NCBI GenBank assembly: GCA_017881725.1
Contig: JADGQO010000135.1
Location: 65,807-129,806, forward strand
Direction of reading: 5' to 3'
Source: Fibrobacteria bacterium
GTDB taxonomy: Bacteria > Fibrobacterota > Fibrobacteria > UBA11236
DNA: 64,000 nucleotides
Below the pieces are notes generated by a model that did not search any database, had not been told where the DNA came from, and saw only the letters and a program-made list of their open reading frames with translations. Below, piece after piece: positions 1 to 25,368 of this stretch (its first letter is position 1; every line of letters starts with the position of its first letter). Both the position numbers and the translations under genes were made by a program.

Positions 1-879
1 ATGAAAATCAAGACTGATTCATTCCGAGTGCGACCCGTGGGAAAAGTCGATCTCGATAAAATACCCACGAGGGGCCAACCGTTTTTCGATTCCAAGCACG
101 CCTACCGGAAATGCCTGCGCGACCATCTCAAGCAGATGGCTTTGCTGCAACGGCTTCTCTATGCCTCCGATCGCTATTCCCTGCTGCTGATTTTCCAAGC
201 CATGGACGCCGCCGGAAAGGATGGCGCCATCCGGCATGTCATGTCCGGGATCAATCCCCAAGGGTGCCAGGTGTTCAGTTTCAAGGAACCCAGTTCCGAG
301 GAGCTCGATCATGATTTCCTTTGGCGGACCAACTGCCGGCTTCCCGAACGCGGTCGGATCGGAATCTTCAATCGTTCCTATTACGAAGAGGTTTTGGTGG
401 TCCGCGTGCATCCGGAGATCCTCAAGGGACAGAACCTTCCCGACGGCCTCGGCGATGCGAAGGACGTTTGGAAAGGGCGGTTCCGATCCATCACGGAAAT
501 GGAAGCCCATCTCCACCGCAACGGCACCCGGGTCGTGAAATTCTTCCTCCACCTTTCCAAGGAGGAGCAACGCAAACGCTTCCTGGACCGGATCAAGGAG
601 TCGGACAAGAATTGGAAATTCAGCTTGGCGGATGTCCATGAACGGAAATACTGGGATGCATACATGAAGGCCTATGCGGAGTGTATTTCCGCGACCAGCA
701 CGGCGGATGCGCCTTGGTACATCATACCTGCGGATGACAAGCACGATGCCCGCTTAGCGATCTCGCAGATCATCCTCGAGACCTTGGATGGACTCAAAAT
801 GGCCTATCCAAAGGCGGATGAGGCGCGGCGCAAGGAATTGGCTGCCATCCGGAAAAATCTGGAAGGTGAAAAACGATGA
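1..879 (+). CDS. Polyphosphate kinase 2 (PPK2) family polyphosphate:nucleotide phosphotransferase; ORF begins at window position 1 so the true start may lie upstream
   Basis: The 292-aa ORF has a PPK2-type P-loop ('[16 protein letters not shown]'). Single-domain size is typical of class I/III PPK2. Its stop overlaps the next start (ATGA at 876-879). Confidence 0.8.
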
Positions 880-3068
880 CGAGCATCAACAGCGAACCCA
901 AGGCATCGAGTCCGCCGAGCCTCAGCCTGCTTCCCAAGGGCATAGCCGGAATGGATTCCTTGACGGAGCTGGCGCTCGATTTGCGCTGGTCCTGGAATCA
1001 TGCAACCGACAAAGTCTGGCGCGTGCTGGATCCCGGTTTGTGGGAGGCGACGCATAATCCCCTGGTGGTCCTGCAAACCATCTCCCGTGAGCGGATTGAA
1101 AATTCCTTAGCCGATCCGGGATTCCGGGAGACGCTCGACTTTTTGGTGGCCAGGAATCGCACGGCCGCGAAGGCGCCGTCCTGGTTCGGCAGCAAGCATG
1201 CGGAAGGTCCGCTGCGCACCATCGCGTACTTCAGCATGGAGTTCATGTTGAGCGAGGCCTTGCCGATTTATTCCGGTGGGCTGGGCAACGTGGCCGGAGA
1301 TCAATTGAAGGCGGCCAGCGATTTGGGCGTGCCCGTGATCGGCGTGGGTCTCCTTTACCAGCAGGGTTATTTCCGCCAGGCGATAGCCCGGGACGGATCG
1401 CAACAGGCGCTTTATCCGTACAATGATCCAGGGCAGTTGCCCATCTCGCCTTTGCGGCATGCGAATGGGGAATGGCTGCGTTTGGAGATCGCGCTCCCTG
1501 GATACTCCGTCTGGCTGCGGGCCTGGGAAGTGCGGGTCGGCAGGGCGAAGCTTTACCTTTTGGACAGCAACGACGCCGCGAATTTTCCCGCGCATCGCGG
1601 CATTACCAGCGAACTCTACGGGGGCGGTCCGGAGTTGCGTCTTAAGCAGGAACTGCTGCTCGGCATCGGTGGCTGGAGATTGCTGCGCGCTCTCGGCATC
1701 CAGCCGGAAATCTGCCATCTCAACGAAGGCCACGCCGCCTTCGCCGTGCTCGAACGCGCCTCCGACACCATGGTTTCCAAATCGTTGCCCTTCGAAAAGG
1801 CTTTGGCCCTCACGCGGGTCGGAAATCTTTTCACCACGCATACGGCGGTCCCGGCGGGATTCGATCGCTTCGCGCCCGCGCTCATCGAACCGTACCTTGG
1901 AAGTTACGCCAGAAATAAACTCGGAATTTCTCTCCGGGACCTGCTGGCGCTTGGGCGAGCGAATCCCAATGATAGTGGCGAGCCCTTCAATATGGCCTAC
2001 TTGGCAATCCGCGGGAGCGGGGCCGTCAACGGAGTCAGCCGCTTGCATGGGCAGGTCAGCCGCCGGCTTTTCGCGCCGCTTTTCCCGGGTCGCCGCGAAG
2101 AGGATGTGCCCATCGGACACGTGACCAACGGCGTCCACATGCCGACCTGGGATTCGGATCGGTCCGATGCGCTATGGACCGAAGCCTGCGGCAAGGACCG
2201 CTGGCTGGGTACCACCGAAGATTTGGCCGGCAGCATCCGGCAGGTATCGGATGAAAAACTCTGGGGTCTGCGGGTGGAATCCAGAAAATGTTTGGTGGAA
2301 TTCACGCGCAAGCGCCTGGCGCTGCAATTGGCGGTTTCCGGCGCGCCGCCTGCCGAAGTGGAGGAGGCTAAACACCTATTCCATCCCGACGCCTTGACCT
2401 TGGGCTTCGCGCGACGATTCGCTGCCTATAAAAGGCCCAACCTGCTTTTGCGGGATCCGGAACGTCTGCTCCGCATTCTGACCGACACGGCGCGACCCGT
2501 ACAGCTCATCCTCGCGGGCAAGGCGCATCCGCAGGACCATGACGGGCAGGCTTTAATCCTGGAGTGGATGAAATTCCTGCGCCGGCCCGAGGCGCGGCCG
2601 CATGTGATTTTCCTGAGCGACTACGATATGCGCTTGACGGAGCATTTGGTGCAAGGCGTGGATGTTTGGATCAATACGCCTAAACGGCCCTGGGAAGCCA
2701 GCGGCACCAGCGGCATGAAGGTGCTGGTCAACGGCGGCCTCAACCTATCGGAGCTGGATGGCTGGTGGGCCGAGGCCTATGCGCCGGAAGTGGGATGGGC
2801 TTTGGGAGATGGGCTGGAACACGGCGACGATCCCGGGCTGGACGGTCGGGAGGCGGATGCGCTGTATGGACTTTTGGAACGGGAAGTCGTGCCCGAATAT
2901 TATGCTCGGAACGGGAACGGCATTCCGGTCGCGTGGACCGGTCGGATTCGGGAAAGCATGGCGCGACTGACTCCGGAATTCTCGGCCAACCGGACCGTGC
3001 GCGAATACACGGAGCGGTATTACCTGCCCGCGGCGGAAGCCTACCTGGCGGGATCATCGCATGCGTAA
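876..3068 (+). CDS. glgP: Alpha-glucan (glycogen/maltodextrin) phosphorylase, GT35 family with DUF3417-type N-terminus
   Basis: 730 aa with motifs 'NEGHAAF' and '[15 protein letters not shown]'. The latter matches the PLP-lysine motif EASGTSNMKFxLNG of glycogen phosphorylases. It overlaps PPK2 by 4 bp and the HAD gene by 8 bp. Confidence 0.85.
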
Positions 3069-3714
3069 AAAATCCGAGGTAACCTGCCTGTTTCTGGACA
3101 TCGGGGGTGTGCTCCTGAGCAACGGTTGGGATCACCATGCGCGCAAACGCGCCGCCATCCGATTCAAGCTCGAGCGGGCGGAGATGGAGGAGCGCCACCA
3201 ACTGAACTTCGAGACTTATGAAATGGGAAAGATCACGCTCATCGAATACTTGGAGCGGGTGATTTTCCACCGCAAGAGACCGTTCACTCCGACGACGTTC
3301 AAAAAATTCATGTTCGCCCAGTCCCAAGCCATCCCCGGCATGATCGATCTGATGGCCCGGTTGAAGGCCCGTCACGCTTTGAAGATAGCCGTGGTCAGCA
3401 ACGAGGGCCGCGAGCTGAATGACTTCCGGATCGAGGCGTTCAAATTGGGCGGGCTCGTGGACTTTTTCATTTCCTCCTGTTTTGTGCAATTGCGAAAGCC
3501 GGATGCGGCGATTTTCCAAATGGCCTTGGACATCGCCCATGTACCGACAAGACAAATCCTTTATCTCGAAAACACGGCCTTGTTCGTGGAGGTCGCGGAG
3601 GGATTGGGGATCCGCAGCATCTTGCATACCGATCGGGCTTCCACGGAAAGCGCACTGGGATCGTTCGGATTGTCCGCTCCGATTGGAATGGCCACGAGGA
3701 AGAGGTCCCGATGA
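3061..3714 (+). CDS. HAD-superfamily hydrolase (subfamily IA-like), substrate unknown
   Basis: 217 aa with an N-terminal 'LFLDIGGVLL' motif-I-like loop and 'KPD' motif III. It is translationally coupled between glgP and ackA. Confidence 0.55.
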   Translation: MRKKSEVTCLFLDIGGVLLSNGWDHHARKRAAIRFKLERAEMEERHQLNFETYEMGKITLIEYLERVIFHRKRPFTPTTFKKFMFAQSQAIPGMIDLMARLKARHALKIAVVSNEGRELNDFRIEAFKLGGLVDFFISSCFVQLRKPDAAIFQMALDIAHVPTRQILYLENTALFVEVAEGLGIRSILHTDRASTESALGSFGLSAPIGMATRKRSR

Positions 3715-4928
3715 AACCTGCCGCCCTCCGCATCCTCACTTTGAATGGCGGCTCTTCGAGCATTAAGTGCGCCCTGTACGAGTCAGGGTCTTCCTTGCGG
3801 CTGATCTGGGAGGGAAGCCTGGAGCGGATTGGACAGCCGGGTACGGTATTCAGGATCAAGTGGCCTGAAAGTACGCAGGGTTTTACCAGGAGTCTGGAAG
3901 GATTTGATGATACGAAGTCGATTCAGGCTGTGGCGGATTGGATCGAAACGGAAGGCGCCCAGGAAGGCCTGGCTGCGGTGGGCCATCGCGTGGTGCAAGG
4001 CGGTCCGGATTTTTTCCAACCCCAGTTGATTACCGACGCCATGCTATCGGACTTGCGGCGGCTGAGCCCCCTTGATCCGGAACATATGCCTGGGGAGATC
4101 CGGATTATCGAAGCCTTTCGGAAAAAGTTCCCGCGGGTGCCGCATATCGCCTGTTTCGATACTGCCTTCCATCACGAGATGCCACACGTAGCGCGGATGT
4201 TACCGATCCCGCGCCGTTACGCATCCCAAGGCTTGCGGCGTTACGGCTTCCACGGCCTTTCCTACGAGTATCTAATGGGGGAGTTGACCCGGCTGGCGGG
4301 ACCGGAAGCCGCGCGCGGCAGGATCATCCTGGCCCATCTCGGCAGCGGAGCCAGTCTGGCGGCGGTGCGTGACGGCAAGCCCGTCGATACGAGCATGGGT
4401 TTTACGCCCGCGTCCGGCCTGGTGATGGGTACGCGGACCGGGGACTTGGATCCGGGACTTTTCAGCTACCTCTCTCGCAAGGAGGGCATGACGGAATCCG
4501 GATTCCAGCGCATGGTGAACCATGAGTCCGGGATGCGCGGCATTTCCGAGACGGTTTCCGATATGCGGGATCTGCTCGCTCGCGAAGCGCGGGATGTGAG
4601 GGCCGCCGAGGCCGTGGAACTATTCTGCTATCAGGCCCGTAAATGGATCGGAGCGTTTGCGGCAGCGCTGGGCGGCTTGGACATCTTGGTGTTCTCCGGC
4701 GGTATCGGCGAACATGCTCCCGTGGTGCGGGCACGGATTTGTGAAGACTTGGGATTCCTCGGCATCGAGATCGATGGAAAAAAGAATGACGTGAACGCGG
4801 AAGTGATTTCGACCGACTCCGGAAAGGTTTCGGTGCGGGTCACACCCACGGATGAGGAGTTGAGGATGGCGCAATTAGTTTCGCAAATTCTTGAAAGTGG
4901 AAATGACCATAAAAAGGAGTCGGTATGA
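3711..4928 (+). CDS. ackA: Acetate kinase
   Basis: 405 aa with an N-terminal 'LTLNGGSSSIKCALY' and a 'GFHGLSYEY' motif. Its stop TGA (4926-4928) overlaps the ATG of the next small ORF. Confidence 0.9.
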   Translation: MKPAALRILTLNGGSSSIKCALYESGSSLRLIWEGSLERIGQPGTVFRIKWPESTQGFTRSLEGFDDTKSIQAVADWIETEGAQEGLAAVGHRVVQGGPDFFQPQLITDAMLSDLRRLSPLDPEHMPGEIRIIEAFRKKFPRVPHIACFDTAFHHEMPHVARMLPIPRRYASQGLRRYGFHGLSYEYLMGELTRLAGPEAARGRIILAHLGSGASLAAVRDGKPVDTSMGFTPASGLVMGTRTGDLDPGLFSYLSRKEGMTESGFQRMVNHESGMRGISETVSDMRDLLAREARDVRAAEAVELFCYQARKWIGAFAAALGGLDILVFSGGIGEHAPVVRARICEDLGFLGIEIDGKKNDVNAEVISTDSGKVSVRVTPTDEELRMAQLVSQILESGNDHKKESV

Positions 4929-5050
4929 TGAACAATACGGGTGGATGGATGCATGGTTGGATGGGTGGAGGGATGTGGACTTGGTCACCGATTGGTGTCT
5001 TGGTCGCAATCTTATTGGTGGTTTTGGTCTTCAGGCTGGTGAGGAGATAA
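4925..5050 (+). CDS. Small (41 aa) Trp/Met/Gly-rich single-pass membrane peptide, MMNNTGGWMHGWMGGGMWTWSPIGVLVAILLVVLVFRLVRR; putative Cu(I)-binding micro-protein
   Basis: A strong SD (AAGGAG, 4913-4918) lies 6 nt before ATG 4925. The N-terminal region is rich in Met, Trp and His; a hydrophobic helix and an RR tail follow. It sits immediately upstream of the Cu+-ATPase and is absent from the ORF track because it is shorter than 60 aa. Confidence 0.4.
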   Translation: MMNNTGGWMHGWMGGGMWTWSPIGVLVAILLVVLVFRLVRR

Positions 5051-5103
5051 GCCTAACCCTGAAATAAGTGCATCAGGAAAATTTTTACAACAGGAAGGAT
5101 CAG

Positions 5104-7332
5104 ATGCTGAATACCCTATCCACGGCCAAGCCGGAAAATCCTATCGATAAAGTTGAATCCGCGCCTTTAAAGGAGACGTATTCAAGGGCAGACCCTTCCG
5201 CCTCTGGACCGGTGTATACTTGCCCCATGCATCCGGAGGTCCGGCAAAATAAACCCGGTGCATGCCCCAAGTGTGGCATGGCGCTGGAACCGGTTCAGTC
5301 AGGGACAAAGGCCGCAGCGGAAGGGGACGGGAATACGGAGCTGACCGATATGGAAAGGCGGTTCTGGATTGGCGGAGCGTTGACGCTTCCGGTTTTCCTG
5401 CTGGCCATGGCGCATCTTATCCCGCCCTTGGCACGGCAGGTTTGGATCATGGGTGATGTTTCACGTTGGCTGCAATTCGGCTTGACCACGCCCGTGGTCG
5501 TTTGGGCCGGTTGGCCGTTTTTTCAACGCGGGTGGCGATCGATTCTCACTTGGAATTTGAACATGTTCACCTTGATATCCATGGGAGTCAGCGCCGCTTA
5601 TCTCTTCAGCGCGGTCGCCATGTTGATGCCGGGTTTATTTCCCGTCACCATGGCGCATGGCGGCAAGGTCGCCATCTACTTCGAGGCGGCGGCCGTGATC
5701 ATCGTTTTGGTTTTGCTGGGACAAGTACTGGAACTGCGAGCCCGCAGCCGTACCGGAAGCGCCATCAAAGCGCTGTTGCACCTCGCGCCGCCCACGGCCC
5801 GGCAGGTTTCACCGGATGGAGATAACGTAGTGCCGCTGGAACAGGTCAAGGTGGGCGATTGGCTGCGCGTCGTTCCCGGGGACAAGGTTCCCGTCGATGG
5901 CGCCGTGGTTGAAGGACGCTCCAGCGTGGAGGAGTCCATGATTACCGGCGAAGCGATTCCGGTGGAAAAATCCGTGGGAGACAAGGTGACGGGCGGAACT
6001 GTCAATGGTTCCGGTAGTTTCGTCATGCGCGCCGATAGGGTGGGTAAGGACACGTTGCTGGGGCGAATCGTGGATATGGTCGCCGAGGCGCAGCGCAGCC
6101 GTGCGCCCATCCAGGGTTTGGCGGACAAGGTCGCCAAAATTTTTGTTCCCACCGTGGTGGGCATTTCGATTTTGACCTTCGTTCTCTGGTTCTGGTTGGG
6201 ACCGGATCCCAGGCTGGCGCATGCCATCGTCAACGCCGTCGCCGTCCTGATCATAGCCTGTCCGTGTGCCTTGGGGCTTGCGACACCCATGTCCATCATG
6301 GTCGGGGTGGGGCGCGGAGCCCAGGAAGGCGTGCTCGTGAAAAGCGCGGAGGCGTTGGAAAGGCTGGAGAAGGTGACCACCCTTGTCATCGACAAGACCG
6401 GCACGCTAACGGAAGCCAAGCCCAAGCTGACGGATATCCTCCCCGTGGACGGTTTTGATGCGAAGGAATTTTTGCTGCTGGCCGCTTCGCTGGAACAAAA
6501 TAGCGAACATCCGCTCGCGACCGCCATCGTGAAGGGCGCCAAGGAGAGTGGCGCAGCCCTCGAAAAAGTAGAAGCCTTTCAATCCGTTACCGCCGGTGGG
6601 GTAACCGGCACGGTACGGGGCCGGAAAGTTATCGTCGGCAAATTGGATTTCCTGAAGCAGGAAAAAATCATGGGGTTGGAAGCCATGGCGGCCTCCGCTG
6701 AAAAATTGCAGGCGGAAGGTAAAACCGCGATGTACGTCGCCGTGGACGGACGACCTGCCGGAATCCTAGCGGTAGCTGATCCCATGAAAGCCTCTACGCC
6801 GGACGCCATCAAGGGGTTGCATGCATTGGGGCTTAAAATCGTCATGCTCACAGGAGACAATCGCAAAACCGCCGATGCCGTGGCCGGAAAGCTTGGCCTG
6901 GACGATGTGGTGGCCGGCATTGATCCCGCCGGAAAGGCGGACTATGTCAAGAAATTGCGGGCCGAAGGCCGTTATGTCGCCATGGCCGGTGATGGCATCA
7001 ACGATGCGCCGGCATTGAGCGCCGCCGAGGTTGGCATCGCCATGGGCACGGGCACGGACGTAGCGATGGAAAGTGCCGGCATCACTTTAGTGAAAGGAGA
7101 TTTGGGTGGCATCGCCAAGGCCATCCATCTCAGCCATGCCACCATGCGGAACATCCGCCAGAACCTCGTCTTCGCTTTTCTTTACAACGCGCTGGGCATC
7201 CCGTTGGCTGCCGGAGCGCTCTACCCTTTCTTCGGCTGGCTCCTAAGTCCCATCATCGCCGGCGCGGCCATGAGCCTCAGTTCCGTGTCGGTAATCAGCA
7301 ACGCTTTGCGGTTGCGGAAAGTGGCGATATGA
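5104..7332 (+). CDS. copA: Copper(I)/silver-translocating P1B-type ATPase with N-terminal CPxHPx...CPxCGM heavy-metal-binding domain
   Basis: It has a TM6 'CPC' motif, a TM7 'YNALGIP', a TM8 'MSLSSVS', the phosphorylation motif DKTGTLT and 'GDGINDAP'. The track ORF starts at GTG 5068, but ATG 5104 has an AGGAAGGA SD and is the more likely start. Its stop overlaps the xfp start (ATGA 7329-7332). Confidence 0.9.
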
Positions 7333-9743
7333 AGACCAAAACCCTTGATCCCGAAACGCTGCAAAAGACCAATGCCTATTGGCGCGCCGCCAATTATTTG
7401 TCCGTCGGGCAGATCTACCTCTATGACAATCCCCTGCTGAAAGAACCGCTGAAACTCTCGCATGTGAAACCCTTAGTGGTGGGGCATTGGGGCACCACGC
7501 CGGGTCAGAATTTCATCTACGTCCATCTGAATCGCGTCATCAAAAAATATGACTTGAACATGTTCTACATCGCCGGGCCCGGCCACGGCGGACCGGCCAT
7601 CGTAGGCAACGTTTATCTCGAAGGCACCTGGAGCGAAGTGTATCCGAACGTCACGCAGGACGAAGCCGGTTTGAAAAAACTCTTCAAGCAATTCTCGTTT
7701 CCCGGAGGCATTTCCAGCCATGTGGCGCCCACGACGCCGGGCTCCATTCACGAAGGCGGCGAACTGGGCTATTCCCTCAGCCATGCCTTTGGCGCGGTCT
7801 TCGACAATCCCGATCTCATCGTCGCCTGCGTCGTCGGAGACGGTGAAGCGGAAACCGGCCCCTTGGCCACCGCGTGGCAGTCCAATAAGTTTCTCGATCC
7901 GATCTCGGACGGAGCCGTGCTGCCCATCCTGCATCTCAACGGCTACAAGATTTCCAATCCTACCGTGCTGGCCCGCATTGAACCGGATGAACTGGATCAA
8001 TTTTTTCGCGGCTGCGGCTGGACGCCTTATTTCGTTGAAGGCGACGACCCGGAAACCATGCACGAACTTATGGCCACCATGGCGGATAAAGCCATTGAGG
8101 ATATTCGCAACATCCAAAGCAACGCCCGTAACCGGAATGATACTACCCGCCCGCGCTGGCCCCTGATCGTGCTCCGATCACCCAAGGGTTGGACGGGACC
8201 GAAAGAAGTAGATGGGCTCAAAGTCGAAGGTACCTTCAGGGCGCATCAAGTGCCGTTAATAGTGAACGCGGAGCATCCCGAACATGTCGCGCAATTGGAA
8301 AGCTGGATGAAAAGCTACCGGCCCGAGGAATTGTTTGATAAGAGCGGCCGGCTCATTACGGAATTGGCTGAGCTGGCGCCGCAAGGTAACCGAAGAATGG
8401 GCGCGAATCCCCATGCCAACGGCGGCGTTTTGTTGCGCGATTTGAAAATGCCCGATTTCCATGCCCATGCGGTGCAGGTGCATGTGCCCGGCGCCGTGGA
8501 CGCACAGGATACGCTCGTGCTGGGAAATTTCCTACGCGATGTGACGCGGCTTAACCAGGAACGACGTCATTTCCGCATATTCGGCCCGGATGAGACGTTG
8601 TCCAATTTGCTGGGCGCGGTTTTTGAAGTCACCAACCGGCAATGGGATGGGCGCCAGAAAGGTGAGGATGAATTTCTCGCGCCCGCCGGAACGGTGTTGG
8701 ATTCGATGCTCAGCGAACACCAATGCGAGGGCTGGCTGGAAGGGTACCTGCTGACCGGTCGGCACGGCCTCTTCAACAGCTACGAGGCGTTCATCCGCAT
8801 CGTCGACTCGATGTTCAGCCAGCATGCCAAATGGCTCAAGGTAACCTCCGAGCTACCTTGGCGGCGGAAAATCGCGTCATTGAACTATCTGCTGGCCTCC
8901 CATGTGTGGCAGCAGGATCACAACGGATTCACGCATCAGGATCCGGGATTCATCGACCATGTCATCAACAAGAAGGCCGACATCGTGCGGGTTTACTTGC
9001 CGCCCGACGCCAATTGCCTGCTCTCGGTATTTGACCATTGCCTGCGCAGCCGGCATTACGTCAATGTGGTGGTGGCCGGGAAACACGCCCTGCCGCAATG
9101 GCTATCCATGGACGCGGCGGTGGTGCATTGCACGGAGGGCATCGGCATCTGGCAATGGGCCAGCAATGACCAGGGCAGTGATCCGGATGTGGTGATGGCC
9201 TGTTGCGGCGACACACCCACGCTGGAGATTCTGGCGGCCGTTTCCATCCTGCGCGAGCATATTCCCGATCTCAAGATCCGGGTGATCAATGTCGTCGATC
9301 TTATGAAGCTCCAATCCGCCGGCGAGCATCCGCACGGGCTGAGCGAAATTGATTACGACTCGCTGTTCACCACAAACAAACACATCATCTTCGGTTATCA
9401 CGGCTATCCCTGGCTGATCCATCGTCTGACCTATCGTCGCACCAACCGCAACCTGCACGTCCGTGGGTACAAGGAAGAGGGTACTATCACCACAGCCTTC
9501 GACATGCGCGTGCAAAACGATTTGGACCGGTTCCACCTGGTGCAGGACGTGGTGGATCGCCTACCGCATTTGGGCTCGAAAGGCGCGTACCTGAAGCAGC
9601 AGATGCAGAACAAGCTGATCGAGCACAAGCATTATATCGACGAGCATGGACAGGATTTGCCCGAGATCAGGAACTGGAAATGGGCGGAGCCTACCGGAAA
9701 GGAATCCGGAGCGAAAGCATTTGCGCTGGAATTGAAGGAATAA
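7329..9743 (+). CDS. xfp: Xylulose-5-phosphate/fructose-6-phosphate phosphoketolase
   Basis: 804 aa with '[11 protein letters not shown]', 'GPGHGGPA' and 'EGGELGYSL', which are phosphoketolase/TPP signature regions. Confidence 0.9.
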
Positions 9744-9776
9744 TCGTCGCGTTAAAACCCAAGCGGGTGAGGAACT

Positions 9777-10805
9777 ATGAATACCCAACTTCTTTTCGAC
9801 ACCGCGAAAAATTTGCTCGCCGACGGCAAGGGCTTGCTGGCCATGGATGAAAGCAATCCCACCTGCAATAAACGTTTCGCCAAGCAGGGCATTCCGCAAA
9901 CCGAAGCCGCGCGCCGCGAGTACCGGGAGTTGATCGTGACCACGCCCGGTCTTGGTGAGTCCATCGGAGGCGCGATTCTATATGACGAAACCATTCGCCA
10001 GAAAAAGCGGGATGGCACGCCTTTCGTCAAAGTCCTCCAGGATGCCGGCATCATTCCCGGCATCAAGGTGGACGTCGGCGCCAAAGACTTGGCCGGTTAT
10101 CCCGGAGAAAAAATTACCGAGGGGTTGGATGGGTTGCGCGAACGCCTTCAAGCGTATTTTCAAATGGGCGCGCGCTTCGCCAAATGGCGCGCGGTGATTC
10201 AGGTGGGCCACGGCATTCCCAGTCGTGGTTGCATAAACGCCAATGCCCATGCCTTGGCGCGCTATGCCGCGTTGTGTCAGGAAGCCGGAATGGTTCCCAT
10301 CGTCGAGCCGGAGGTGCTGATGGACGGCGAGCATAATATGGAGCGCTGCCGCGAGGTAACCGAGGAGTTACTGCGGACGGTTTTCCATCACTTGTCTGCG
10401 CAACGCGTGCTGCTGGAAGGCATGCTTTTGAAGGCCAATATGGTGTTGCCGGGATCGGCCTGTTCGCAACAAGCCTCCCTTGAGGAAGTGGCCGACGCCA
10501 CCGTCCATTGTTTCCTGCGCACGGTTCCCGCCGCTGTTCCCGGAATCGCTTTCTTGTCCGGGGGCCAACCCGGCCTATCAGCCTCGGCCCGCTTGAATGC
10601 CATGAATATGCGCTTCAAGGATCGATTGCCTTGGGCCTTGGCCTTTTCGTTTGCACGGGCCATCCAACAACCGGCGCAGGAGATATGGCGGGGCAGGGAA
10701 GCCAACGTGGCGGCGGCGCAGCAAGCTCTTTCCCATCGGGCCGCCTGCAACCGGGCGGCACGCCGCGGCGAATACAATGAACCAATGGAGACGGAAAATG
10801 CATGA
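9777..10805 (+). CDS. fba: Fructose-bisphosphate aldolase class I
   Basis: 342 aa. 'LEGMLLKANMVLPGS' matches the Schiff-base lysine region of class I aldolases; 'LLAMDESNPTC' and 'IIPGIKVD' are also present. Confidence 0.85.
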   Translation: MNTQLLFDTAKNLLADGKGLLAMDESNPTCNKRFAKQGIPQTEAARREYRELIVTTPGLGESIGGAILYDETIRQKKRDGTPFVKVLQDAGIIPGIKVDVGAKDLAGYPGEKITEGLDGLRERLQAYFQMGARFAKWRAVIQVGHGIPSRGCINANAHALARYAALCQEAGMVPIVEPEVLMDGEHNMERCREVTEELLRTVFHHLSAQRVLLEGMLLKANMVLPGSACSQQASLEEVADATVHCFLRTVPAAVPGIAFLSGGQPGLSASARLNAMNMRFKDRLPWALAFSFARAIQQPAQEIWRGREANVAAAQQALSHRAACNRAARRGEYNEPMETENA

Positions 10806-10859
10806 CTTGAATTCTTCGATTCAGGCTATCTACAACGGGATGATGGAAGGAGTGCCTCC

Positions 10860-11000
10860 ATGAAATCGGAAATCCGTTTCCCCGGCGACGTCTATGTGCC
10901 ATTGGCTCTTTCCCCGGCGGACTTCGGGTTTAGTCTCTGGCGATTCCCTAATGGCTTTTTCGAGGAGATCAAAGCCGGCCGGGTCGAAGGAAAATGCTGA
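10860..11000 (+). CDS. Small ORF (46 aa, MKSEIRFPGDVYVPLALSPADFGFSLWRFPNGFFEEIKAGRVEGKC), hypothetical
   Basis: ATG is preceded by GGAAGGAG at correct spacing. There is no homology I recognise, so this is a low-confidence small protein. Confidence 0.2.
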   Translation: MKSEIRFPGDVYVPLALSPADFGFSLWRFPNGFFEEIKAGRVEGKC

Positions 11001-11052
11001 AGTTGAAACTTAATCGAACACGGTTACAAAACATCCAATCATTGAAAGAGGA

Positions 11053-11247
11053 ATGACCATGAATCAAACGATTACATCCAAGACCAAAGACCCCATGTGC
11101 GGAATGACCGTGGACCCGGCAACGGCTCTCCACGCCGAGCGCGATGGGAAGACGTCCTACTTTTGCAGCAAACATTGTCAGGAAAAATTCTTGTCCACTC
11201 CCGCTGGTGCCAAACCGGAGGAAAAGTCTGGAGGTTGCTGTAGCTAG
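11053..11247 (+). CDS. YHS-domain (TRASH-like) metal-binding protein
   Basis: 64 aa with 'DPMCGMTVDP...YFCSKHCQEKF', a YHS-domain cysteine pattern, and a C-terminal 'GGCCS'. Confidence 0.7.
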   Translation: MTMNQTITSKTKDPMCGMTVDPATALHAERDGKTSYFCSKHCQEKFLSTPAGAKPEEKSGGCCS

Positions 11248-11402
11248 AGTGAGGGGATGGGGGACGACGAGCCGATTTCCGGCAGAACTCACTCTAGGGA
11301 CCAAGAGGACAGTTGCACCATGAAGACCAACAAACCGGCGTTGAAGCTGCCCGACACGATGGACCCCAACGTGGCGCGGAGACGCAGGGAGACGTAACCG
11401 AT

Positions 11403-12398
11403 ATGATACCCATGTATCCCCTGCGATTTGATCCGATTTACCAATACCGGTTATGGGGCGGACGTCGTTTGGCGCATTTGCTTAAGGCGCCATTGCCGGG
11501 CGATGAACCCATCGGCGAAGCCTGGCTGTTGAGTGATCGTGAAGATCATTCCAGCCGCGTCGCTGCGGGACCGCTTAAGGGCCAAACCTTGGGCCAATTG
11601 CTGCGACAAATGCCGGAGCAATTGCTGGGAAAACCGGTCGGACATTTTCCCCGGTTTCCATTGCTGTTGAAGTTTTTGGATGCCCGCACCCTGCTCTCAG
11701 TTCAAGTGCACCTGTCGGATAGTCAAACCGACTATTTGCCGGCGGGCGAACTCGGAAAAACCGAAGCCTGGGTGGTGCTGGAGACGGGGCCTAAAAGCCG
11801 TATCTACGCAGGCTTGAAGCCAGGCGTGACCGTGGGCTTAATGCGGCGCGCGGTCGCAACCGGGTCGGTGGCGGATCATTTGGCGGGTTTCAAACCCAAT
11901 CCCGGCGACGCGGTTTTCCTGCCGGCCGGCACGGTACATTCGCTCTGCGATGTAGTGGTGTTCGAAGTGCAGGAAAACAGCGACGTGACTTTTCGCCTTT
12001 CTGACTGGGACCGCATCGATGCCAAAACCGGGAAGCCCCGGCCTCTGCAAGTGGATGCGGCGTTGGCCTGCCTGGATTTTTCGCAGGGCGCAATCGCAGC
12101 GGTGACGCCGGTGGTGGAAGAAACTCGGCCGATATTTCGCGAGAGACTTTTTGATTGTAAACATTTTGCCTTGCGGCGACTTCGCGCGGGATCTCCGTTT
12201 ACGGTCGGTGCTCCGAGCAGGCTGCGGATTCTGGTGTGTCTTTCCGGCGACGGTCAGGTGCAATATGGCGGGATCGATTACCCCATCGGCACCGGCGATA
12301 CGCTGCTCTTGCCGGCCGCGGTGGGCAAGTGCATGTGCCGACCGAATGCTTCCATCACCATGTTGGAAATTTCCCTTCCCGAAGAAAGCCATCCATGA
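11403..12398 (+). CDS. manA: Mannose-6-phosphate isomerase, type I (PMI)
   Basis: 'YPLRFDPIYQYRLWGG...GEAWLLSD' is the N-terminal type I PMI signature. The ORF track starts at 11313, but ATG 11403 (MIPMYPL) matches the homologous N-terminus. Confidence 0.8.
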   Translation: MIPMYPLRFDPIYQYRLWGGRRLAHLLKAPLPGDEPIGEAWLLSDREDHSSRVAAGPLKGQTLGQLLRQMPEQLLGKPVGHFPRFPLLLKFLDARTLLSVQVHLSDSQTDYLPAGELGKTEAWVVLETGPKSRIYAGLKPGVTVGLMRRAVATGSVADHLAGFKPNPGDAVFLPAGTVHSLCDVVVFEVQENSDVTFRLSDWDRIDAKTGKPRPLQVDAALACLDFSQGAIAAVTPVVEETRPIFRERLFDCKHFALRRLRAGSPFTVGAPSRLRILVCLSGDGQVQYGGIDYPIGTGDTLLLPAAVGKCMCRPNASITMLEISLPEESHP

Positions 12399-13177
12399 AG
12401 AAACTGATTGTGTTTGACCTGGACGGCACGCTGGCCGAAAGCAAATCATCCCTTGATGCCGAAATGGCCGCGCTGCTCAACATCTTGCTGGGCCTTACAC
12501 AGGTGGCCGTCATTTCCGGCGGCAATTGGCCGCAATTTGAAAAACAGGTGCTCGCCAACCTGGCGCATGATCAGCACCTGAAAAATCTTTCGCTGCTCCC
12601 CACTTGCGGAACGAAGTTTTACCGCAATGAATCGGATTGGAAATTGATTTACTCGGAAGATTTTACGGCGGATGAAAAAAGGAAAATCATCGCAGGTTTG
12701 GGAAAGGCGATGGACTTGCCGGGCATCAAGGCCGAAAAAAGTTGGGGAGAATTGGTGGAGGATAGGGGAAGCCAGATCACTTTCTCAGCGCTGGGACAGC
12801 AGGCGCCTCTAGAAGAAAAAAGGAAATGGGATCCGGATTTCGCCAAACGGAAGCGCATGAAAACCCAGCTGGATCAAACCATCCCCGAATTCTCCGTGCG
12901 ATTGGGCGGCATGACTTCCGTGGACGTCACCAAGCCCGGCATTGACAAAGCCTATGGCATCCGTAAACTCCGCGACATACTCGGCATCGCCATTGAGGAA
13001 ATGATTTTTGTCGGTGACGCATTGTTTCCCGGCGGCAACGACTATCCGGTCAAAGAAGCGGGCGCACTGAGCATCCAAGTCAAAGATCCGCATGAGTCGA
13101 AACGGGTGATTGAAGCCATCATTGCCTGTCTGGGCGATGCGCCACCGGTCGTATCGAAAGCGGAAAAGAAATCATGA
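12395..13177 (+). CDS. Eukaryotic-type phosphomannomutase (HAD-IIB, PMM family)
   Basis: 'VFDLDGTLAESKSSLDAEMAALL...VISGG...FEKQV' and the C-terminal 'FVGDALFPGGNDYPV' resemble human PMM2 ('LFDVDGTLTAPRQKITKEM...VVGGSDFEKVQEQL' and 'FFGDKTMPGGNDHEIF', recalled from memory). The ATG overlaps the manA stop (ATGA). The track ORF start at 12236 is a spurious upstream extension. Confidence 0.65.
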   Translation: MKKLIVFDLDGTLAESKSSLDAEMAALLNILLGLTQVAVISGGNWPQFEKQVLANLAHDQHLKNLSLLPTCGTKFYRNESDWKLIYSEDFTADEKRKIIAGLGKAMDLPGIKAEKSWGELVEDRGSQITFSALGQQAPLEEKRKWDPDFAKRKRMKTQLDQTIPEFSVRLGGMTSVDVTKPGIDKAYGIRKLRDILGIAIEEMIFVGDALFPGGNDYPVKEAGALSIQVKDPHESKRVIEAIIACLGDAPPVVSKAEKKS

Positions 13178-14331
13178 GTGATTTTCAATTGCAGCGCTTG
13201 GGTCAAATCATGGAGCCGAAGCCGGGCAATCCACAGGAGGTGGAAGGCGTTCTGAACCCGGCCGCCATGCGCGGCCCCGACGGTCACCTTTATTTGTTTC
13301 CCAGACTCGTCGCGCGGGGCAATTATTCGCGCATCGGAATCGCGCGGGTTATCTTCAACTCAGCAGGCGATCCCACCGGCGTGGAACGGCTCGGCATTGC
13401 GTTGGAGCCAGAAACCGAATACGAAAGGCTGCCGGATGGCGGCGGCGGATGCGAAGATCCACGCATCACCTTTGTCGCCCCGTTACGGCGTTATGTGATG
13501 ACCTATGCGGCGCTTTCCCGGCAAGGACCGCGTATCGCCCTGGCCATTTCCCAAGATTTGTTCCATTGGAAGCGGCTGGGACTCGCGACCTTCGCTCCTT
13601 TCGAAGGCATCGATTTCGTCCACGTGGACAACAAGGATGCCAGCGTTTTCCCCGTCGCCATTCCCAATCATGCCGGAAAAATGCAACTGGCCCTTTTGCA
13701 CCGACCGCTTTTCCCCGGCACGCGCCCCGAAGAAACCTCCTTTCAAAGCGAGTCCCGTGTTGTCGATCGCGATCATGAAAGCATCTGGATTTCCTACTGC
13801 CCCATGATTTTGGATGGTCATGGCCGGGATCGTCTCGGCCTGTTCAACTCGCATCACCGGCTCGCAACTCCGGTGTCGCCTTGGGAGCGGCTCAAGATAG
13901 GCGGCGGCACTCCGCCCATCATGACCCGGCACGGCTGGTTGATTCTGTATCATGGCGTGAGAAAAATGGCGGAGCCGGACCCGCGCGGATGCCAACTCTG
14001 CTACTCAGCGGGAGTTATGGTGCTTGACCCGGAGCATCCGCGCATCATCCACTACCGTTCGACGGATCCAGTGTTGACACCGATGTTACCCCAGGAACGC
14101 AACGGCACCATCGCCAACGTCGTTTTTCCTACGGGAATCGATCGGCGCGATGATCTCGGGTTGCCGGATCGCTTCGACGTCTACTATGGAATGGCCGATA
14201 ACCGCATCGGCGCGGTGCGCCTGGATGTGCCGGATATTCTGCCGCCGGGTAACGCGGCCGATACGGCGGCATCGGGTTCAAACGCGCCTATCTTTGGAAA
14301 TTCCAAACCTCGCAACCCTGAAAGAAAATAA
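13174..14331 (+). CDS. GH130-family beta-mannoside phosphorylase / glycosidase (DUF377)
   Basis: 385 aa. 'VLNPAAMRGPDGHLYLFPRLV', 'CEDPRI' and 'YYGMADNRIGAV' fit the GH130 five-bladed propeller phosphorylases. Its start overlaps the PMM stop. Confidence 0.8.
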   Translation: MSDFQLQRLGQIMEPKPGNPQEVEGVLNPAAMRGPDGHLYLFPRLVARGNYSRIGIARVIFNSAGDPTGVERLGIALEPETEYERLPDGGGGCEDPRITFVAPLRRYVMTYAALSRQGPRIALAISQDLFHWKRLGLATFAPFEGIDFVHVDNKDASVFPVAIPNHAGKMQLALLHRPLFPGTRPEETSFQSESRVVDRDHESIWISYCPMILDGHGRDRLGLFNSHHRLATPVSPWERLKIGGGTPPIMTRHGWLILYHGVRKMAEPDPRGCQLCYSAGVMVLDPEHPRIIHYRSTDPVLTPMLPQERNGTIANVVFPTGIDRRDDLGLPDRFDVYYGMADNRIGAVRLDVPDILPPGNAADTAASGSNAPIFGNSKPRNPERK

Positions 14332-14617
14332 ACCAAGGAGAAATCATGCCCATTCAAATTCAGGAAGAAATCAATGGCAAAGCGAAATAGACGATTCGAT
14401 ACTTCGATCACACGGATACAATTGCCGCCAGGAAGTGGTTGTTTGACGCCCTGCGAATTGCGCCCCGTATGAGTCCCATGGAATGGAATTCCCCGAAATG
14501 AAGATCGCTAGGGCTGCCAATATTTTTCAGCGAAGTTGGGTTGGCTGCGATAGTCCTGAAAACGTATTTCAACCATGGAATCAGTCCGAGCAACCATAGT
14601 CACTAAAGGACAATCGA

Positions 14618-16933
<2,316 letters not shown>

Positions 16934-16941
<8 letters not shown>

Positions 16942-17269
16942 GGAGACAAAAGGAAAGTCCGACAGCGGGGACGGGTTTGGGGAGCGGGTGGGGGCCAAGG
17001 CCGATCGCTTGCTTAAGGTGAAACGGCATCCGCCTCAGGGAGTCTGGTTTGGACTGGGCATGATGGGCCTGATCGGCTGGTCGGTGGTGATCCCCACCGT
17101 AACCGGTGCGTTACTGGGGTTGTGGCTGGACGCGCGCCATCCCGGCAGCCATTCCTGGACCTTGGCGCTTTTGATGGCCGGTCTGGTGCTGGGATGCGGC
17201 AATGCCTGGCGCTGGGTCGCGAAAGAGGAAAAAGCGATGCGACGGGAACAGGAGGGCGACGATGCATGA
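16934..17269 (+). CDS. atpQ: N-ATPase accessory membrane protein AtpQ (AtpZ/AtpI-like)
   Basis: 111 aa with two hydrophobic helices ('VWFGLGMMGLIGWSVVIPTVTGALLGLWLD'). Its position after atpC matches the N-ATPase operon layout. Confidence 0.5.
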
Positions 17270-17597
17270 GGCCATGAACCGAATAACGACGGGCCTGGCG
17301 GGTCTGGCTGGTTTGGGAATAGGCACAGTCTTCTTCGGCGGCTTGTGGTGGACTGTGCGCCAAGGGGTAACCTCCAAGCGACCGGCGCTTCTTTTCACGG
17401 GCAGCATGGTGGCGCGTATGGGGTTCGCCCTGACCGGATTCTATTTCGTCTCGGCTCACCATTGGGAACGCGCGGTAGCCTGCCTGATCGGCTTTGTCGC
17501 GGCGCGCATGGCCGTGCGCATGACCGTGGAGAAGCTGGCGGGACCGAAATCGGAGCCCCAATCGGCCGAGACCCGGGAGGCCGGGAGTGCGGCTTAG
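17262..17597 (+). CDS. atpR: N-ATPase membrane protein AtpR (conserved intramembrane Arg)
   Basis: Start is MHEAMNRITTG at ATG 17262. It has two TM helices with Arg in 'SMVARMGFALTGF'. It is positioned before atpB, as in N-ATPase operons. Confidence 0.5.
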   Translation: MHEAMNRITTGLAGLAGLGIGTVFFGGLWWTVRQGVTSKRPALLFTGSMVARMGFALTGFYFVSAHHWERAVACLIGFVAARMAVRMTVEKLAGPKSEPQSAETREAGSAA

Positions 17598-18282
17598 CGC
17601 AGATGAATTGGTCTTTTGGAGGCATGGCTTCATCAAGGTCAATGCGACCATCGCCTATACCTGGGGACTGATGATCCTGATGGCCTTGGGCGCCAAACTC
17701 ATCACCCGTAACCTGTCGAAGGATCTCAAGCGATCGCGCTGGCAAAACCTTCTTGAGATCCTGGTCACGGCAATTGGGAAGCAGATCGGTGAAATCGGTT
17801 TGCGCGATCCGGGCAAGTACCTGGGCTTTCTGGGCACTCTTTTCCTGTTTATCGCCATGGCCAATATCTGCACCATCCTACCCGGATATGAACCTCCCAC
17901 GGGTTCGCTCTCGACTACAGCGGCCCTGGCCCTCTGCGTCTTCGTGGCCGTGCCCTATTATGGAATTACGGACCGTGGTTTGGGCGGCTACCTCAAGTCC
18001 TATCTGGAGCCGACTCCCATCATGCTACCGCTCAATATCATCAGCGAGCTTTCCCGCACCTTGGCCATGGCCGTCCGCCTGTTCGGCAATATGATGAGCG
18101 GCGCCATGATCATCGCGATTCTTTTGACCATCACGCCTTTTCTTTTCCCCATTGTCATGACCGCGCTGGGCCTGCTCACGGGAATGGTGCAGGCCTATAT
18201 CTTCAGCATCCTGGCCGCAGTGTACATCGCCGCCGCCACCCGCCCTGTTACTGAACAAAAACCGGAACGAAAACCGAAATGA
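17587..18282 (+). CDS. atpB: N-ATPase Fo subunit a
   Basis: 231 aa. 'LAMAVRLFGNMMSG' contains the essential Arg of subunit a. Confidence 0.85.
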   Translation: MRLSADELVFWRHGFIKVNATIAYTWGLMILMALGAKLITRNLSKDLKRSRWQNLLEILVTAIGKQIGEIGLRDPGKYLGFLGTLFLFIAMANICTILPGYEPPTGSLSTTAALALCVFVAVPYYGITDRGLGGYLKSYLEPTPIMLPLNIISELSRTLAMAVRLFGNMMSGAMIIAILLTITPFLFPIVMTALGLLTGMVQAYIFSILAAVYIAAATRPVTEQKPERKPK

Positions 18283-18297
18283 CCCAAGGAACCTGAT

Positions 18298-18579
18298 ATG
18301 GACTATACCAGCCTCATCGCCATCGCCTCCATCATCACCGCCGGATTCACGACCAGCATCGGATGCATCGCACCCGCCCTGGGGGAAGGGCGATCGGTCG
18401 CGACCGCCTTGACCGCGCTCGCCCAGCAGCCGGACGCCTCCGCCACCATTACGCGGACCTTGTTCATCGGACTCGCCATGATCGAGTCCACGGCCATCTA
18501 TTCCTTTGTGGTCTCCATGATCCTCATCTTCGCGAACCCGTTCTGGAACCATGTCATCGCTCAGGCCGCGGGGAAGTGA
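18298..18579 (+). CDS. atpE: N-ATPase Fo subunit c with complete Na+-binding ligand set
   Basis: 93 aa. Helix 1 has 'ALAQQPD' (Gln); helix 2 has 'GLAMIESTAIYSF' (Glu-Ser-Thr...Tyr). This is the Q...ESTxxY pattern of Na+-translocating c-rings such as Ilyobacter tartaricus. Confidence 0.85.
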   Translation: MDYTSLIAIASIITAGFTTSIGCIAPALGEGRSVATALTALAQQPDASATITRTLFIGLAMIESTAIYSFVVSMILIFANPFWNHVIAQAAGK

Positions 18580-18582
18580 TCC

Positions 18583-22186: not shown

Positions 22187-22262
22187 TGGAGCGGGTTAAG
22201 AGACTCGAACCCTCGACCTTCTCCTTGGCAAGGAGATGCTCTACCAACTGAGCTAAACCCGC
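22187..22262 (-). tRNA. tRNA-Gly (anticodon GCC), CCA encoded
   Basis: The reverse complement reads GCGGGTT-TA-GCTC-AGTTGGTA-GAGC-A-TCTCC-TTGCCAA-GGAGA-AGGTC-GAGGG-TTCGAGT-CTCTT-AACCCGC-T-CCA. This is a cloverleaf with U8, A9, a GTTCGAGT T-loop and anticodon loop TT-GCC-AA. The T-stem contains two G-U pairs. Confidence 0.8.

Positions 22263-22346: not shown

Positions 22347-25368
<3,022 letters not shown>

Follow-up and report, generated by a model that had tools for sequence, protein, structure and literature searches.

The described locus that comes closest in gene content to the one reported here is the lxa locus of Burkholderia cenocepacia, which brings together an acetate kinase, a cation P-type ATPase, alpha-crystallin/Hsp20 proteins, universal stress proteins (USPs) and storage-polymer turnover, and which its authors compared with the DosR dormancy regulon of Mycobacterium tuberculosis (PMC3721108). 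We analysed a 64,000-nt stretch of DNA from a Fibrobacteria bacterium (contig JADGQO010000135.1; 'the window' below), which opens with an island of sugar phosphorylases, a phosphoketolase-acetate kinase pair and an N-ATPase operon. As in lxa and the DosR regulon, related copies of this island carry USPs, Hsp20, a ribosome hibernation factor and a P-type ATPase. The main text of the lxa paper, by contrast, never uses the words phosphoketolase, glycogen or polyphosphate and lists no GH130 enzyme or N-ATPase; the lxa polymer is polyhydroxyalkanoate, regulators are known and induction was measured, whereas the present island is known from its genes and shows no regulator (PMC3721108). The present island is also spread across phyla, and its likeness to lxa is one of gene content. 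With slightly better than even confidence, we read it as a horizontally mobile survival module that would turn reserves into acetyl-phosphate, acetyl-phosphate into ATP, and ATP into ion extrusion, all without redox cost.

On the metabolic side the island resembles the bifid shunt and synthetic non-oxidative glycolysis, in which Xfp and AckA give ATP from fructose 6-phosphate or xylulose 5-phosphate. Phosphoketolase combined with carbon rearrangement is redox-neutral in both, and Bogorad et al. in 2013 reportedly described non-oxidative glycolysis as a redox-neutral phosphoketolase route. Unlike the bifid shunt, the copy in the window has no transketolase or transaldolase, is fed from reserves by phosphorylases and is linked to ion pumps. 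Full-text literature searches aimed at the gene combination found no description of the island, which is no proof of novelty, and no paper linking phosphoketolase with an N-ATPase. Set beside these systems, it is probably a survival or energy-maintenance island assembled from known enzyme families.

The island takes up at least positions 1-21951 of the forward strand (21 genes, ~22 kb). The window begins exactly at the ppk2 start codon, and the left border of the island lies beyond it. Families were assigned with Pfam and NCBIfam hidden Markov models (HMMs), which cover the carbohydrate, copper and ATPase genes. An initial annotation, made from the sequence alone, had described positions 1-14331 as twelve same-strand genes with 4-8-bp overlaps, encoding a run of sugar-phosphorolysis enzymes. 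Its eight named families (PPK2, GlgP, AckA, Xfp, FBA, PMI, the PMM family and GH130) were recovered by the HMMs at the coordinates it had given, and the GH130 and PMM open reading frames (ORFs) do not fall into unrelated families (PF04041, 110 bits; PF03332, 44.1 bits). The ORFs it described in 1-14331 are indeed all on the forward strand, and the stop/start overlaps at 876, 3061, 3711, 7329, 12395 and 13174 measure 4, 8, 4, 4, 4 and 4 nt. The count is corrected to 11 supported genes, a 46-aa ORF at 10860-11000 having no family match and not being counted; three of the eleven (HAD-IA, CopA, YHS), which either lie outside carbohydrate metabolism or have no assigned role, had not been named; and past 14331 the same-strand run goes on, by way of a secreted protein rich in Met (14618-15073), to nine N-ATPase genes that end at 21951. 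The carbohydrate and polyphosphate genes are as follows.

1-879 (+): PPK2, ADP-polyphosphate phosphotransferase type (PF03976, 219 bits; NF042973, 492.6 bits against a cutoff of 450, profile positions 1-285 of 285)
876-3068 (+): alpha-glucan (glycogen/maltodextrin) phosphorylase, GlgP, DUF3417 type (DUF3417 and Phosphorylase domains; TIGR02094, 775 bits)
3061-3714 (+): HAD-IA hydrolase between GlgP and AckA (PF00702, PF13419)
3711-4928 (+): acetate kinase, AckA (PF00871, 366 bits; TIGR00016, 350 bits, cutoff 293)
7329-9743 (+): phosphoketolase, Xfp (XFP_N, XFP, XFP_C; NF003619, 1423 bits)
9777-10805 (+): class I fructose-bisphosphate aldolase, FBA (PF00274, 437 bits; NF033379, 508 bits)
11403-12398 (+): type I mannose-6-phosphate isomerase, PMI (PMI_typeI_cat; start taken at the ATG at 11403, the ORF opening with a TTG at 11313)
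12395-13177 (+): HAD-IIB alpha-phosphohexomutase, PMM/PgmH family (PF03332, 44.1 bits, cutoff 22.4)
13174-14331 (+): GH130 (PF04041, 110 bits)

The nine genes that follow, adjacent or overlapping, encode an N-ATPase, a putative ion pump.

15081-16562 (+): N-ATPase beta, atpD (TIGR03305, 891.7 bits, cutoff 752)
16552-16941 (+): N-ATPase epsilon, atpC (TIGR03166, 156 bits, cutoff 100)
16934-17269 (+): N-ATPase AtpQ, putative F0F1-ATPase subunit, gene 1 (TIGR02230, 114.8 bits, cutoff 46.7)
17262-17597 (+): N-ATPase AtpR, Methanosarcina-type subunit 2 (TIGR03165, 88.4 bits, cutoff 55.5)
17587-18282 (+): N-ATPase a subunit, atpB (TIGR03306, 376 bits, cutoff 302)
18298-18579 (+): N-ATPase c subunit, atpE (TIGR03322, 154.5 bits, cutoff 130.9)
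18583-19407 (+): N-ATPase b subunit, atpF (TIGR03321, 299 bits, cutoff 224.7)
19391-21064 (+): N-ATPase alpha, atpA (TIGR03324, 921.5 bits, cutoff 750.5)
21061-21951 (+): N-ATPase gamma, atpG, the last gene of the island (TIGR03323, 400.6 bits, cutoff 282)

In the working that we propose, alpha-glucan phosphorylase would release glucose 1-phosphate from glycogen with phosphate instead of water or ATP, the GH130 phosphorylase would draw mannose 1-phosphate from a beta-1,2-mannoside reserve without ATP priming, and PPK2 would feed the ATP side by phosphorylating ADP from polyphosphate. The HAD-IIB mutase, joined by PMI on the mannose branch, would bring the hexose phosphates to fructose 6-phosphate; phosphoglucose isomerase (PGI) for the glucose branch would have to be encoded outside the island; a gene for it is present in some related islands. 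Xfp would convert fructose 6-phosphate and inorganic phosphate (Pi) into acetyl-phosphate and erythrose 4-phosphate, AckA would then make ATP, and the C4/C3 remainder would be recycled by the class I aldolase, joined by transaldolase in a number of relatives, so that the whole would be redox-neutral and need no electron acceptor. The co-located pump, an N-ATPase here and a P3A ATPase in most relatives, would spend the ATP on expelling H+ or Na+, and this extrusion would sustain the membrane potential and the pH of the cytoplasm where cells cannot respire, for instance in anoxic, often acidic, peat or soil. The steps linking fructose 6-phosphate, mannose 6-phosphate, mannose 1-phosphate and mannoside are reversible, and the same three genes could deposit the reserve when hexose phosphate is plentiful and Pi low.

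We surveyed one genome per GTDB species and found 510 relatives. Gene frequencies were obtained by tblastn in the 43 loci whose flanks reached 10 kb on both sides, ORF clusters serving only to choose Pfam representatives, and the position of the pump was recorded in 66 loci whose flank was long enough. Of the 510, the best 80 are without exception metagenome-assembled genomes (MAGs), mostly from peat, bog, fen, wetland and soil projects; they span more than ten phyla, with GH130 identity of 74-83%. Their labels include Verrucomicrobiota, Planctomycetota, Acidobacteriota, Bacteroidota, Ignavibacteria, Deltaproteobacteria and Gammaproteobacteria, as well as Chloroflexi, Zixibacteria, Fibrobacterota, Omnitrophota, Armatimonadota, Acidimicrobiia and Saccharimonadales. 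The co-localisation, at first called unusual, is thus not rare, being present in at least 510 species-level genomes and horizontally spread.

The genes found in the 43 loci lie nearly always on the strand of GH130. The PMI-mutase-GH130 trio is nearly invariant (37-42 of 43 loci), the HAD-IIB mutase occurring in 98% and PMI in 86%. A P-type (P3A) ATPase is found in 74% of the loci, Xfp in 63%, FBA in 49%, AckA in 44% and the HAD-IA hydrolase in 26%. PPK2 homologues (65-69% identity) occur in 17 of the 43 (40%), transaldolase in seven (16%) and PGI in six (14%). Among the other recurrent neighbours are a PRC-barrel protein (21/43, 49%), a YflT-like protein (18/43, 42%), a STAS/SpoIIAA-like protein (15/43, 35%), the ribosome hibernation factor HPF (10/43, 23%), tandem USP (6/43, 14%) and Hsp20 (5/43, 12%). 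Alpha-glucan phosphorylase is 72-77% identical in related loci, where the order GlgP-HAD-AckA recurs, as does the pairing of Xfp with acetate kinase seen in the window. The window Xfp falls in a cluster of 3110 sequences formed at 90% identity. Among solved structures the HAD-IA protein is closest to the uncharacterised hydrolase 3CNH (6e-37), and the glucose-1-phosphatase YihX is a weak match (5e-5). Examples of the PRC-barrel, YflT-like and STAS proteins lie at 4926-5726 of locus L054, 15691-16239 of L038 and 6139-6912 of L007. A DUF2934 segment is carried by P3A ATPases and by one Hsp20 of related loci.

Exact protein look-up gave three contexts with the same pattern: GlgP-HAD-AckA-Xfp-PGI-...-PMI-mutase-GH130-P-type ATPase-6PGD-6PGL-G6PD; cytochrome bd-PRC-HMBD-Xfp-FBA-PMI-mutase-GH130-STAS-P-type ATPase-ferritin; and mutase-GH130-P-type ATPase. 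The island is modular, consisting of a [GlgP-HAD-AckA-Xfp-FBA] block and a [PMI-mutase-GH130-pump-PPK2] block. Over window positions 144-20816, the N-ATPase genes among them, an acidobacterial locus (L078) is colinear with the island at 65-80% nucleotide identity. In the nearest relative of the window island (L004, GH130 88%), a cytochrome bd oxidase lies upstream of xfp (412-2703).

An arrangement met again in dozens of unrelated genomes goes far beyond what chance would give. We therefore hold it extremely unlikely that the cluster is a fortuitous grouping of ordinary central-metabolism genes with no joint function. It is true that each family is common, that xfp-ackA pairs are widespread, and that scans for promoters, terminators and operators do not tie the five apparent transcription units together. 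Promoter-like sites in 1-17000 numbered 3 against 7.2 expected and terminator-like sites 22 against 20.9 expected, and both are uninformative on transcription units; an FNR/CRP-type box (TTGAT-N4-ATCAA, at most one mismatch) was found 0 times in the window with 2.2 expected by chance; and inverted repeats in four intergenic gaps were limited to hairpins around a tRNA-Gly gene, giving no operator candidate. No regulator gene lies in the island. Against such a grouping stand the order and strand shared by dozens of genomes from more than ten phyla, and nucleotide colinearity over 15 kb.

A survival rather than a growth role is suggested by the stress and dormancy neighbours of sister islands (hibernation factor, tandem USP, Hsp20, YflT, PRC-barrel, STAS and, in L004, cytochrome bd), by the origins of the samples and by the lack of a transporter or secreted glycosidase. 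Neither the 21 genes nor the recurrent neighbour families include a sugar transporter, SusC/D, a binding protein, a secreted glycosidase or a sugar-responsive regulator. The same observations bear on a nutritional reading, in which external beta-mannosides and alpha-glucans would be imported, phosphorolysed and fermented for growth, the pumps being unrelated. This reading draws on the established use of GH130, PMM and PMI for imported mannosides in gut bacteria (PMC7660257), on the action of characterised GH130 phosphorylases on imported oligosaccharides, and on source habitats rich in plant and fungal glycans. We nevertheless regard it as quite unlikely: uptake genes, secreted glycosidase and sugar regulator are absent from the island and its recurrent neighbours, which are instead pumps and stress proteins, and the clade is ~80% identical across phyla, unlike the diversifying, substrate-specific utilisation loci. 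Polysaccharide utilisation loci differ from the island in the same way, the latter having no SusC/D or ABC transporter, no secreted glycosidase and no sugar sensor.

The pump completes the proposed route. By its profile matches and gene order, 15081-21951 is a complete N-ATPase (alternate F1Fo) operon and a full member of that family: it starts with beta and runs atpD-C-Q-R-B-E-F-A-G, all nine subunit models passed, the c subunit has the ion-site motif GEG...ESTAIY (GEG...ESTxxY; the E...ESTxxY pattern of the family), and no OSCP/delta subunit was matched in the operon. An operon of this order without delta agrees with the N-ATPases of Dibrova et al., who in 2010 reportedly described them as laterally transferred enzymes that probably work as ATP-driven ion pumps. 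The fixed place of the N-ATPase directly behind a GH130/phosphoketolase block, and its exchange there for a P3A pump, were not found described in the literature searched. In 43 of the 66 loci (65%) the start of an ion-pump ATPase lies no more than 3 kb past GH130; 39 of these pumps are P3A ATPases, three are N-ATPases and one is a P1B ATPase. The P-type ATPase of the relatives is a plasma-membrane-type proton-efflux P3A enzyme (TIGR01647, 1053 bits, cutoff 615.5). N-ATPase and P3A ATPase share one slot behind GH130. The single storage-polymer-to-ATP module proposed in the initial annotation is supported by the conserved synteny, but its ATP consumer had been missed; because a pump (the N-ATPase, or P3A elsewhere) follows GH130, the reading shifts to one from storage polymer through ATP to an ion gradient.

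The island appears to be horizontally mobile and to have spread between phyla; this is supported by high between-phylum identity, by the divergence of housekeeping genes and by sub-blocks on conjugative or mobilizable plasmids. Median identities between and within phyla are 79.7% and 82.6% for GH130, 88.7% and 92.0% for Xfp, 85.0% and 87.5% for the P3A ATPase, 76.4% and 80.9% for the HAD-IIB mutase, 79.6% and 87.5% for FBA, 75.5% and 77.1% for PPK2, and 66.8% and 80.8% for AckA. Maxima between phyla reach 91-99%, and only 29-75% of nearest neighbours, according to the protein, share the phylum (from 6/21 for PPK2 to 30/40 for PMI). The housekeeping TatD of the window, by comparison, has no relative above 70%, its named relatives being Fibrobacteria/Fibrobacteres MAGs at 60-62%, and relatives of its PurH fall to 58%, where Chitinispirillum (Fibrobacterota) is among the matches; these two proteins place the host among the uncultured Fibrobacterota. 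Judged by identity, island proteins are closer to those of other phyla than the host's housekeeping proteins are to those of its own relatives. Composition shifts modestly, with GC content of 0.580 in the island vs 0.547 outside, and 0.695 vs 0.647 at third codon positions.

Parts of the island are carried by plasmids of cultured bacteria. Conjugative plasmid 2 of Nitrobacter hamburgensis X14 has AckA, glucokinase, a fusion of beta-phosphoglucomutase (beta-PGM) with GH65, HAD-IIB, GH130 (71%) and Xfp, within copper and heavy-metal resistance genes. The fusion (L085, 15969-19235) is a 1088-aa protein joining a beta-phosphoglucomutase-type HAD to a complete GH65 phosphorylase; it lies directly upstream of HAD-IIB-GH130-Xfp and brings a third kind of phosphorylase to the same module. 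The conjugative plasmid pBBta01 of Bradyrhizobium sp. BTAi1 has ppk2 ... GH130-P1B ATPase amid copper genes, glgA and insertion sequence (IS) elements, and an IncP-like plasmid of Methylotuvimicrobium alcaliphilum 20Z has Xfp-FBA beside IS21. A Hymenobacter psoromatis plasmid reads P-type ATPase-...-HAD-AckA-Xfp-FBA-...-CsbD; its 779-aa 'hypothetical protein' (L088, 8311-10647) proves to be a P-type ATPase that shares 40% identity with the P3A pump, and in a gap of the same locus with no annotated gene (18107-21815) tblastn gives a weak P-type ATPase-like match (27% to CopA) from ~18839. A TraG-like conjugative coupling protein ~9 kb downstream in L004 (20506-21158) and a tmRNA gene ~4 kb past GH130 in L011 (15201-15555) are possible traces of an association with mobile elements.

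Through its sequence, GH130 is predicted to be a cytoplasmic beta-1,2-mannoside phosphorylase from a highly conserved clade without a characterised member. Its nearest solved relatives are the Thermoanaerobacter 1,2-beta-oligomannan phosphorylase Teth514_1788 and a beta-1,2-mannobiose phosphorylase (E values 1e-21 and, with a profile, 5e-29), and the N-terminus MSDFQLQRLGQIMEPKPGNPQ is without a hydrophobic leader or signal peptide. Like Teth514_1788/1789 and Lin0857, the protein combines PF04041 with the catalytic Asp, the Arg/His pair for Pi and the E/K pair of the +1 subsite. Phosphorylases in GH130 keep the proton-donor Asp and have no second carboxylate (Li et al. 2020, PMC7660257); their phosphate-binding Arg/His pair, R168/H231 in UhgbMP numbering, is absent from GH130 hydrolases, and at the +1 subsite E/K marks beta-1,2, Y/R beta-1,4 and E/R beta-1,3 linkages (PMC7660257). 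In the window protein E94-D95, K154, R177, H260 and D342 are invariant in 17 relatives. D95 lies in an invariant GGCEDPRI aligned to the EDPRI of Teth514_1788, which holds the proton-donor Asp, and K154 lies in an NKDAS identical to that of Teth514_1788, E94 and K154 forming the E/K pair. H260 (WLILYHG) corresponds in the alignment to the YH of the two Thermoanaerobacter phosphorylases, where the hydrolases BT3780 and 4ONZ have YNG; R177 (LLHRP) was matched to the LHRR of Teth514_1788 by flanking motifs, in a stretch that HMMER left unaligned. The E94/K154 pair and the R177/H260 phosphate pair are the grounds for the beta-1,2 prediction, which speaks against beta-1,4-mannan as the substrate; the initial annotation had written of beta-mannan.

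Unlike characterised GH130 enzymes, to which its likeness is distant and confined to local alignments, the window protein has an insertion of ~20-45 residues after R177 and is extraordinarily conserved; the position of the hydrolase base, E227, falls where this insertion leaves no alignment. At E values up to 1e-10 the database holds more than 7000 relatives, and the best 120 clusters are all at least 66% identical. An AlphaFold2 model built from a 17-sequence alignment had a mean pLDDT of 51.9, too poor for active-site inspection.

PMI scores 110.9 bits against TIGR00218, just below the cutoff of 116.2, and matches Bacillus subtilis PMI (1QWR) over its full length (9e-36); it contains QVH, GKTEAW and GTVHSL, which we take to be the Zn-ligand positions of type I PMIs. 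The mutase (260 aa) starts with FDLDGTL, a DxDGT motif, and like Lactococcus lactis PgmH (4BND, an alpha-phosphoglucomutase) it aligns end to end with that protein (2.6e-43), true or eukaryotic PMMs reaching ~1e-14. It had been called a eukaryote-type PMM: PF03332 and the DxDxT motif agree with this, the closer match to an alpha-phosphoglucomutase does not. Unlike PgmH, it has a constant place between PMI and GH130 (adjacent to GH130 in 42 of the 43 loci), and this place favours a mannose-phosphate role; going by sequence, the enzyme could act in the branch from glycogen, in that from mannose, or in the two together.

Both GH130 and GT108 enzymes deposit mannosides in vitro, and Leishmania does so with mannogen. 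As in that mannogen cycle, run by MTPs of family GT108, the trio would allow cycling between hexose phosphate and beta-mannoside without nucleotide sugars. This raises a biosynthetic alternative, in which PMI, mutase and GH130 would run, by reverse phosphorolysis, from fructose 6-phosphate to a beta-mannoside, either a compatible solute or a protective oligomer, that guards against osmotic stress, acid or desiccation. Each of the three steps can run backwards without a nucleotide sugar, beta-1,2 GH130 enzymes make oligomannan from mannose 1-phosphate in vitro, Leishmania mannogen is both reserve and stress buffer, and YflT, Hsp20, USP and CsbD are among the neighbours. We consider a protectant unlikely as the main role, since linkage with GlgP, Xfp, AckA and ATP-consuming pumps fits energy release better; it is also compatible with the survival module, as the same genes could do both. 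Pathways for the solutes mannosylglycerate and mannosylglucosylglycerate were considered and dropped, no GT55/MpgS or MPGP-type match being found; to our knowledge these pathways do not use GH130.

A bolder form of the survival reading can be put forward only tentatively: the island may be a portable 'battery pack', spread by plasmids over more than ten phyla, in which a mannogen-like reserve turned over by PMI-mutase-GH130 would join glycogen and polyphosphate in supplying phosphoketolase ATP dedicated to an H+ or Na+ pump. Were this so, membrane potential and internal pH would be held for long without an electron acceptor.

Several points weigh against the survival module in either form. PGI, transketolase and transaldolase have no match in 1-21951 of the window by HMM scans or tblastn, and the USP, Hsp20 and hibernation factor genes of related loci were not found by tblastn in the window. 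A dedicated beta-1,2-mannan synthase is not in the island, and we know of no report of a beta-1,2-mannan (mannogen-like) reserve in bacteria. Specificity for glucose phosphates is possible for the mutase, as for 4BND, the solved protein nearest to it; Neves et al. in 2006 reportedly found PgmH to be glucose-specific. In 23 of the 66 loci no ATPase lies within 3 kb of GH130, and no shared promoter or operator motif emerged from the promoter, FNR-box and inverted-repeat scans. The best 80 loci come from MAGs, whose phylum labels may hold binning errors, though many contigs exceed 1 Mb. Finally, we infer the physiological trigger (anoxia, acid, starvation) only from the neighbours and the origin of the samples.

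Three further genes, related to copper, are interleaved with those of the island.

5068-7332 (+): CopA-type P1B heavy-metal ATPase with an N-terminal HMBD (E1-E2_ATPase, Hydrolase, HMBD; TIGR01511, 594 bits), overlapping xfp by 4 nt
11053-11247 (+): YHS-domain (metal-binding) protein of 64 aa, ending GGCCS (PF04945, 42.6 bits)
14618-15073 (+): secreted Met-rich protein with a signal-peptide-like N-terminus, 34 Met in 151 aa (22%), no Pfam match

A purine-rich stretch, GAAAGAGGAA, just 5' of the ATG of the YHS gene is a candidate ribosome-binding site. The Met-rich gene, between GH130 and the N-ATPase, has an identical copy on Logan contig L001 and is absent from the 80 related loci; its product is possibly a periplasmic Cu(I) binder. 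YHS and CopA proteins occur near the island in L011 (61% and 73% identity), L066 (57% and 59%) and N. hamburgensis plasmid 2 (48% and 59%), and in L004 just a 116-aa HMBD ORF remains before xfp. At 40% identity or more, CopA-like genes are present in three of the 43 fully flanked loci. The CopA, YHS and Met-rich genes are lineage-specific inserts or cargo, because the colinear L078 is without all three. A copper-stress island, in which polyphosphate, P-type ATPases and metal binders would detoxify copper with the carbohydrate genes as passengers, would explain why these genes are interleaved in the window, why the GH130 blocks of the Nitrobacter and Bradyrhizobium plasmids sit inside copper/heavy-metal regions and why GH130 is followed by a P1B ATPase on pBBta01. 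The scarcity of CopA-like genes among the 43 loci, the colinear copy that does without all three, and a dominant pump that is a proton P3A ATPase and not a metal pump make it very unlikely.

The right edge of the island is marked by a tRNA gene, 236 nt past atpG.

22187-22262 (-): tRNA-Gly(GCC) (ARAGORN; Rfam, 69.5 bits)

Similarity to all related loci ends near this gene, none of them matching the window beyond position 22000, and it may be an old integration site. It is not a general attachment site, since in the 46 related loci scanned for tRNA genes none came as close as 10 kb to GH130, and the scan turned up just one tmRNA. No integrase, transposase or border direct repeats were found in the visible part of the island, whose left border is outside the window. 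A 95-nt 'tRNA-Thr' called by ARAGORN at 466-560 (-) inside ppk2 is probably a false positive, Rfam giving no call. To the right of the tRNA-Gly, housekeeping genes lie on both strands: ligA, a cysK-like gene, miaA, tatD, trmFO/gid, purH, purC, bamD, lptFG and sppA. The ligA ORF (22347-24794, -) has ~150 residues ahead of its first recognised domain and the purH ORF (42447-44165, -) ~45 extra N-terminal residues, in each case either a real extension or an over-long ORF call. A 1955-aa protein at 34733-40600 (+), with NIDO, Rha78A-like Ig, HYR, CHB_HEX_C_1 and Fn3_assoc domains, is presumably a giant surface or adhesion protein; just upstream lies an Ig-domain outer-membrane beta-barrel protein (31966-33765). 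Three ORFs of 300-415 aa each, at 25980-27182 (+), 28597-29499 (+) and 45151-46398 (-), have no Pfam match.

The island raises questions about the substrate of its GH130 clade, a possible bacterial counterpart of mannogen, and the role of N-ATPases and bacterial P3A pumps, for which the cultured plasmid hosts Nitrobacter hamburgensis X14, Bradyrhizobium sp. BTAi1 and Hymenobacter psoromatis offer handles. Little is understood of how non-fermentative or facultative soil bacteria survive when peat and wetlands stay anoxic and acidic for long, a question that bears on soil carbon turnover. Present in hundreds of species and apparently exchanged between phyla, the island offers a testable answer, in which reserves would be converted through acetyl-phosphate and ATP into an ion gradient with no redox by-product.

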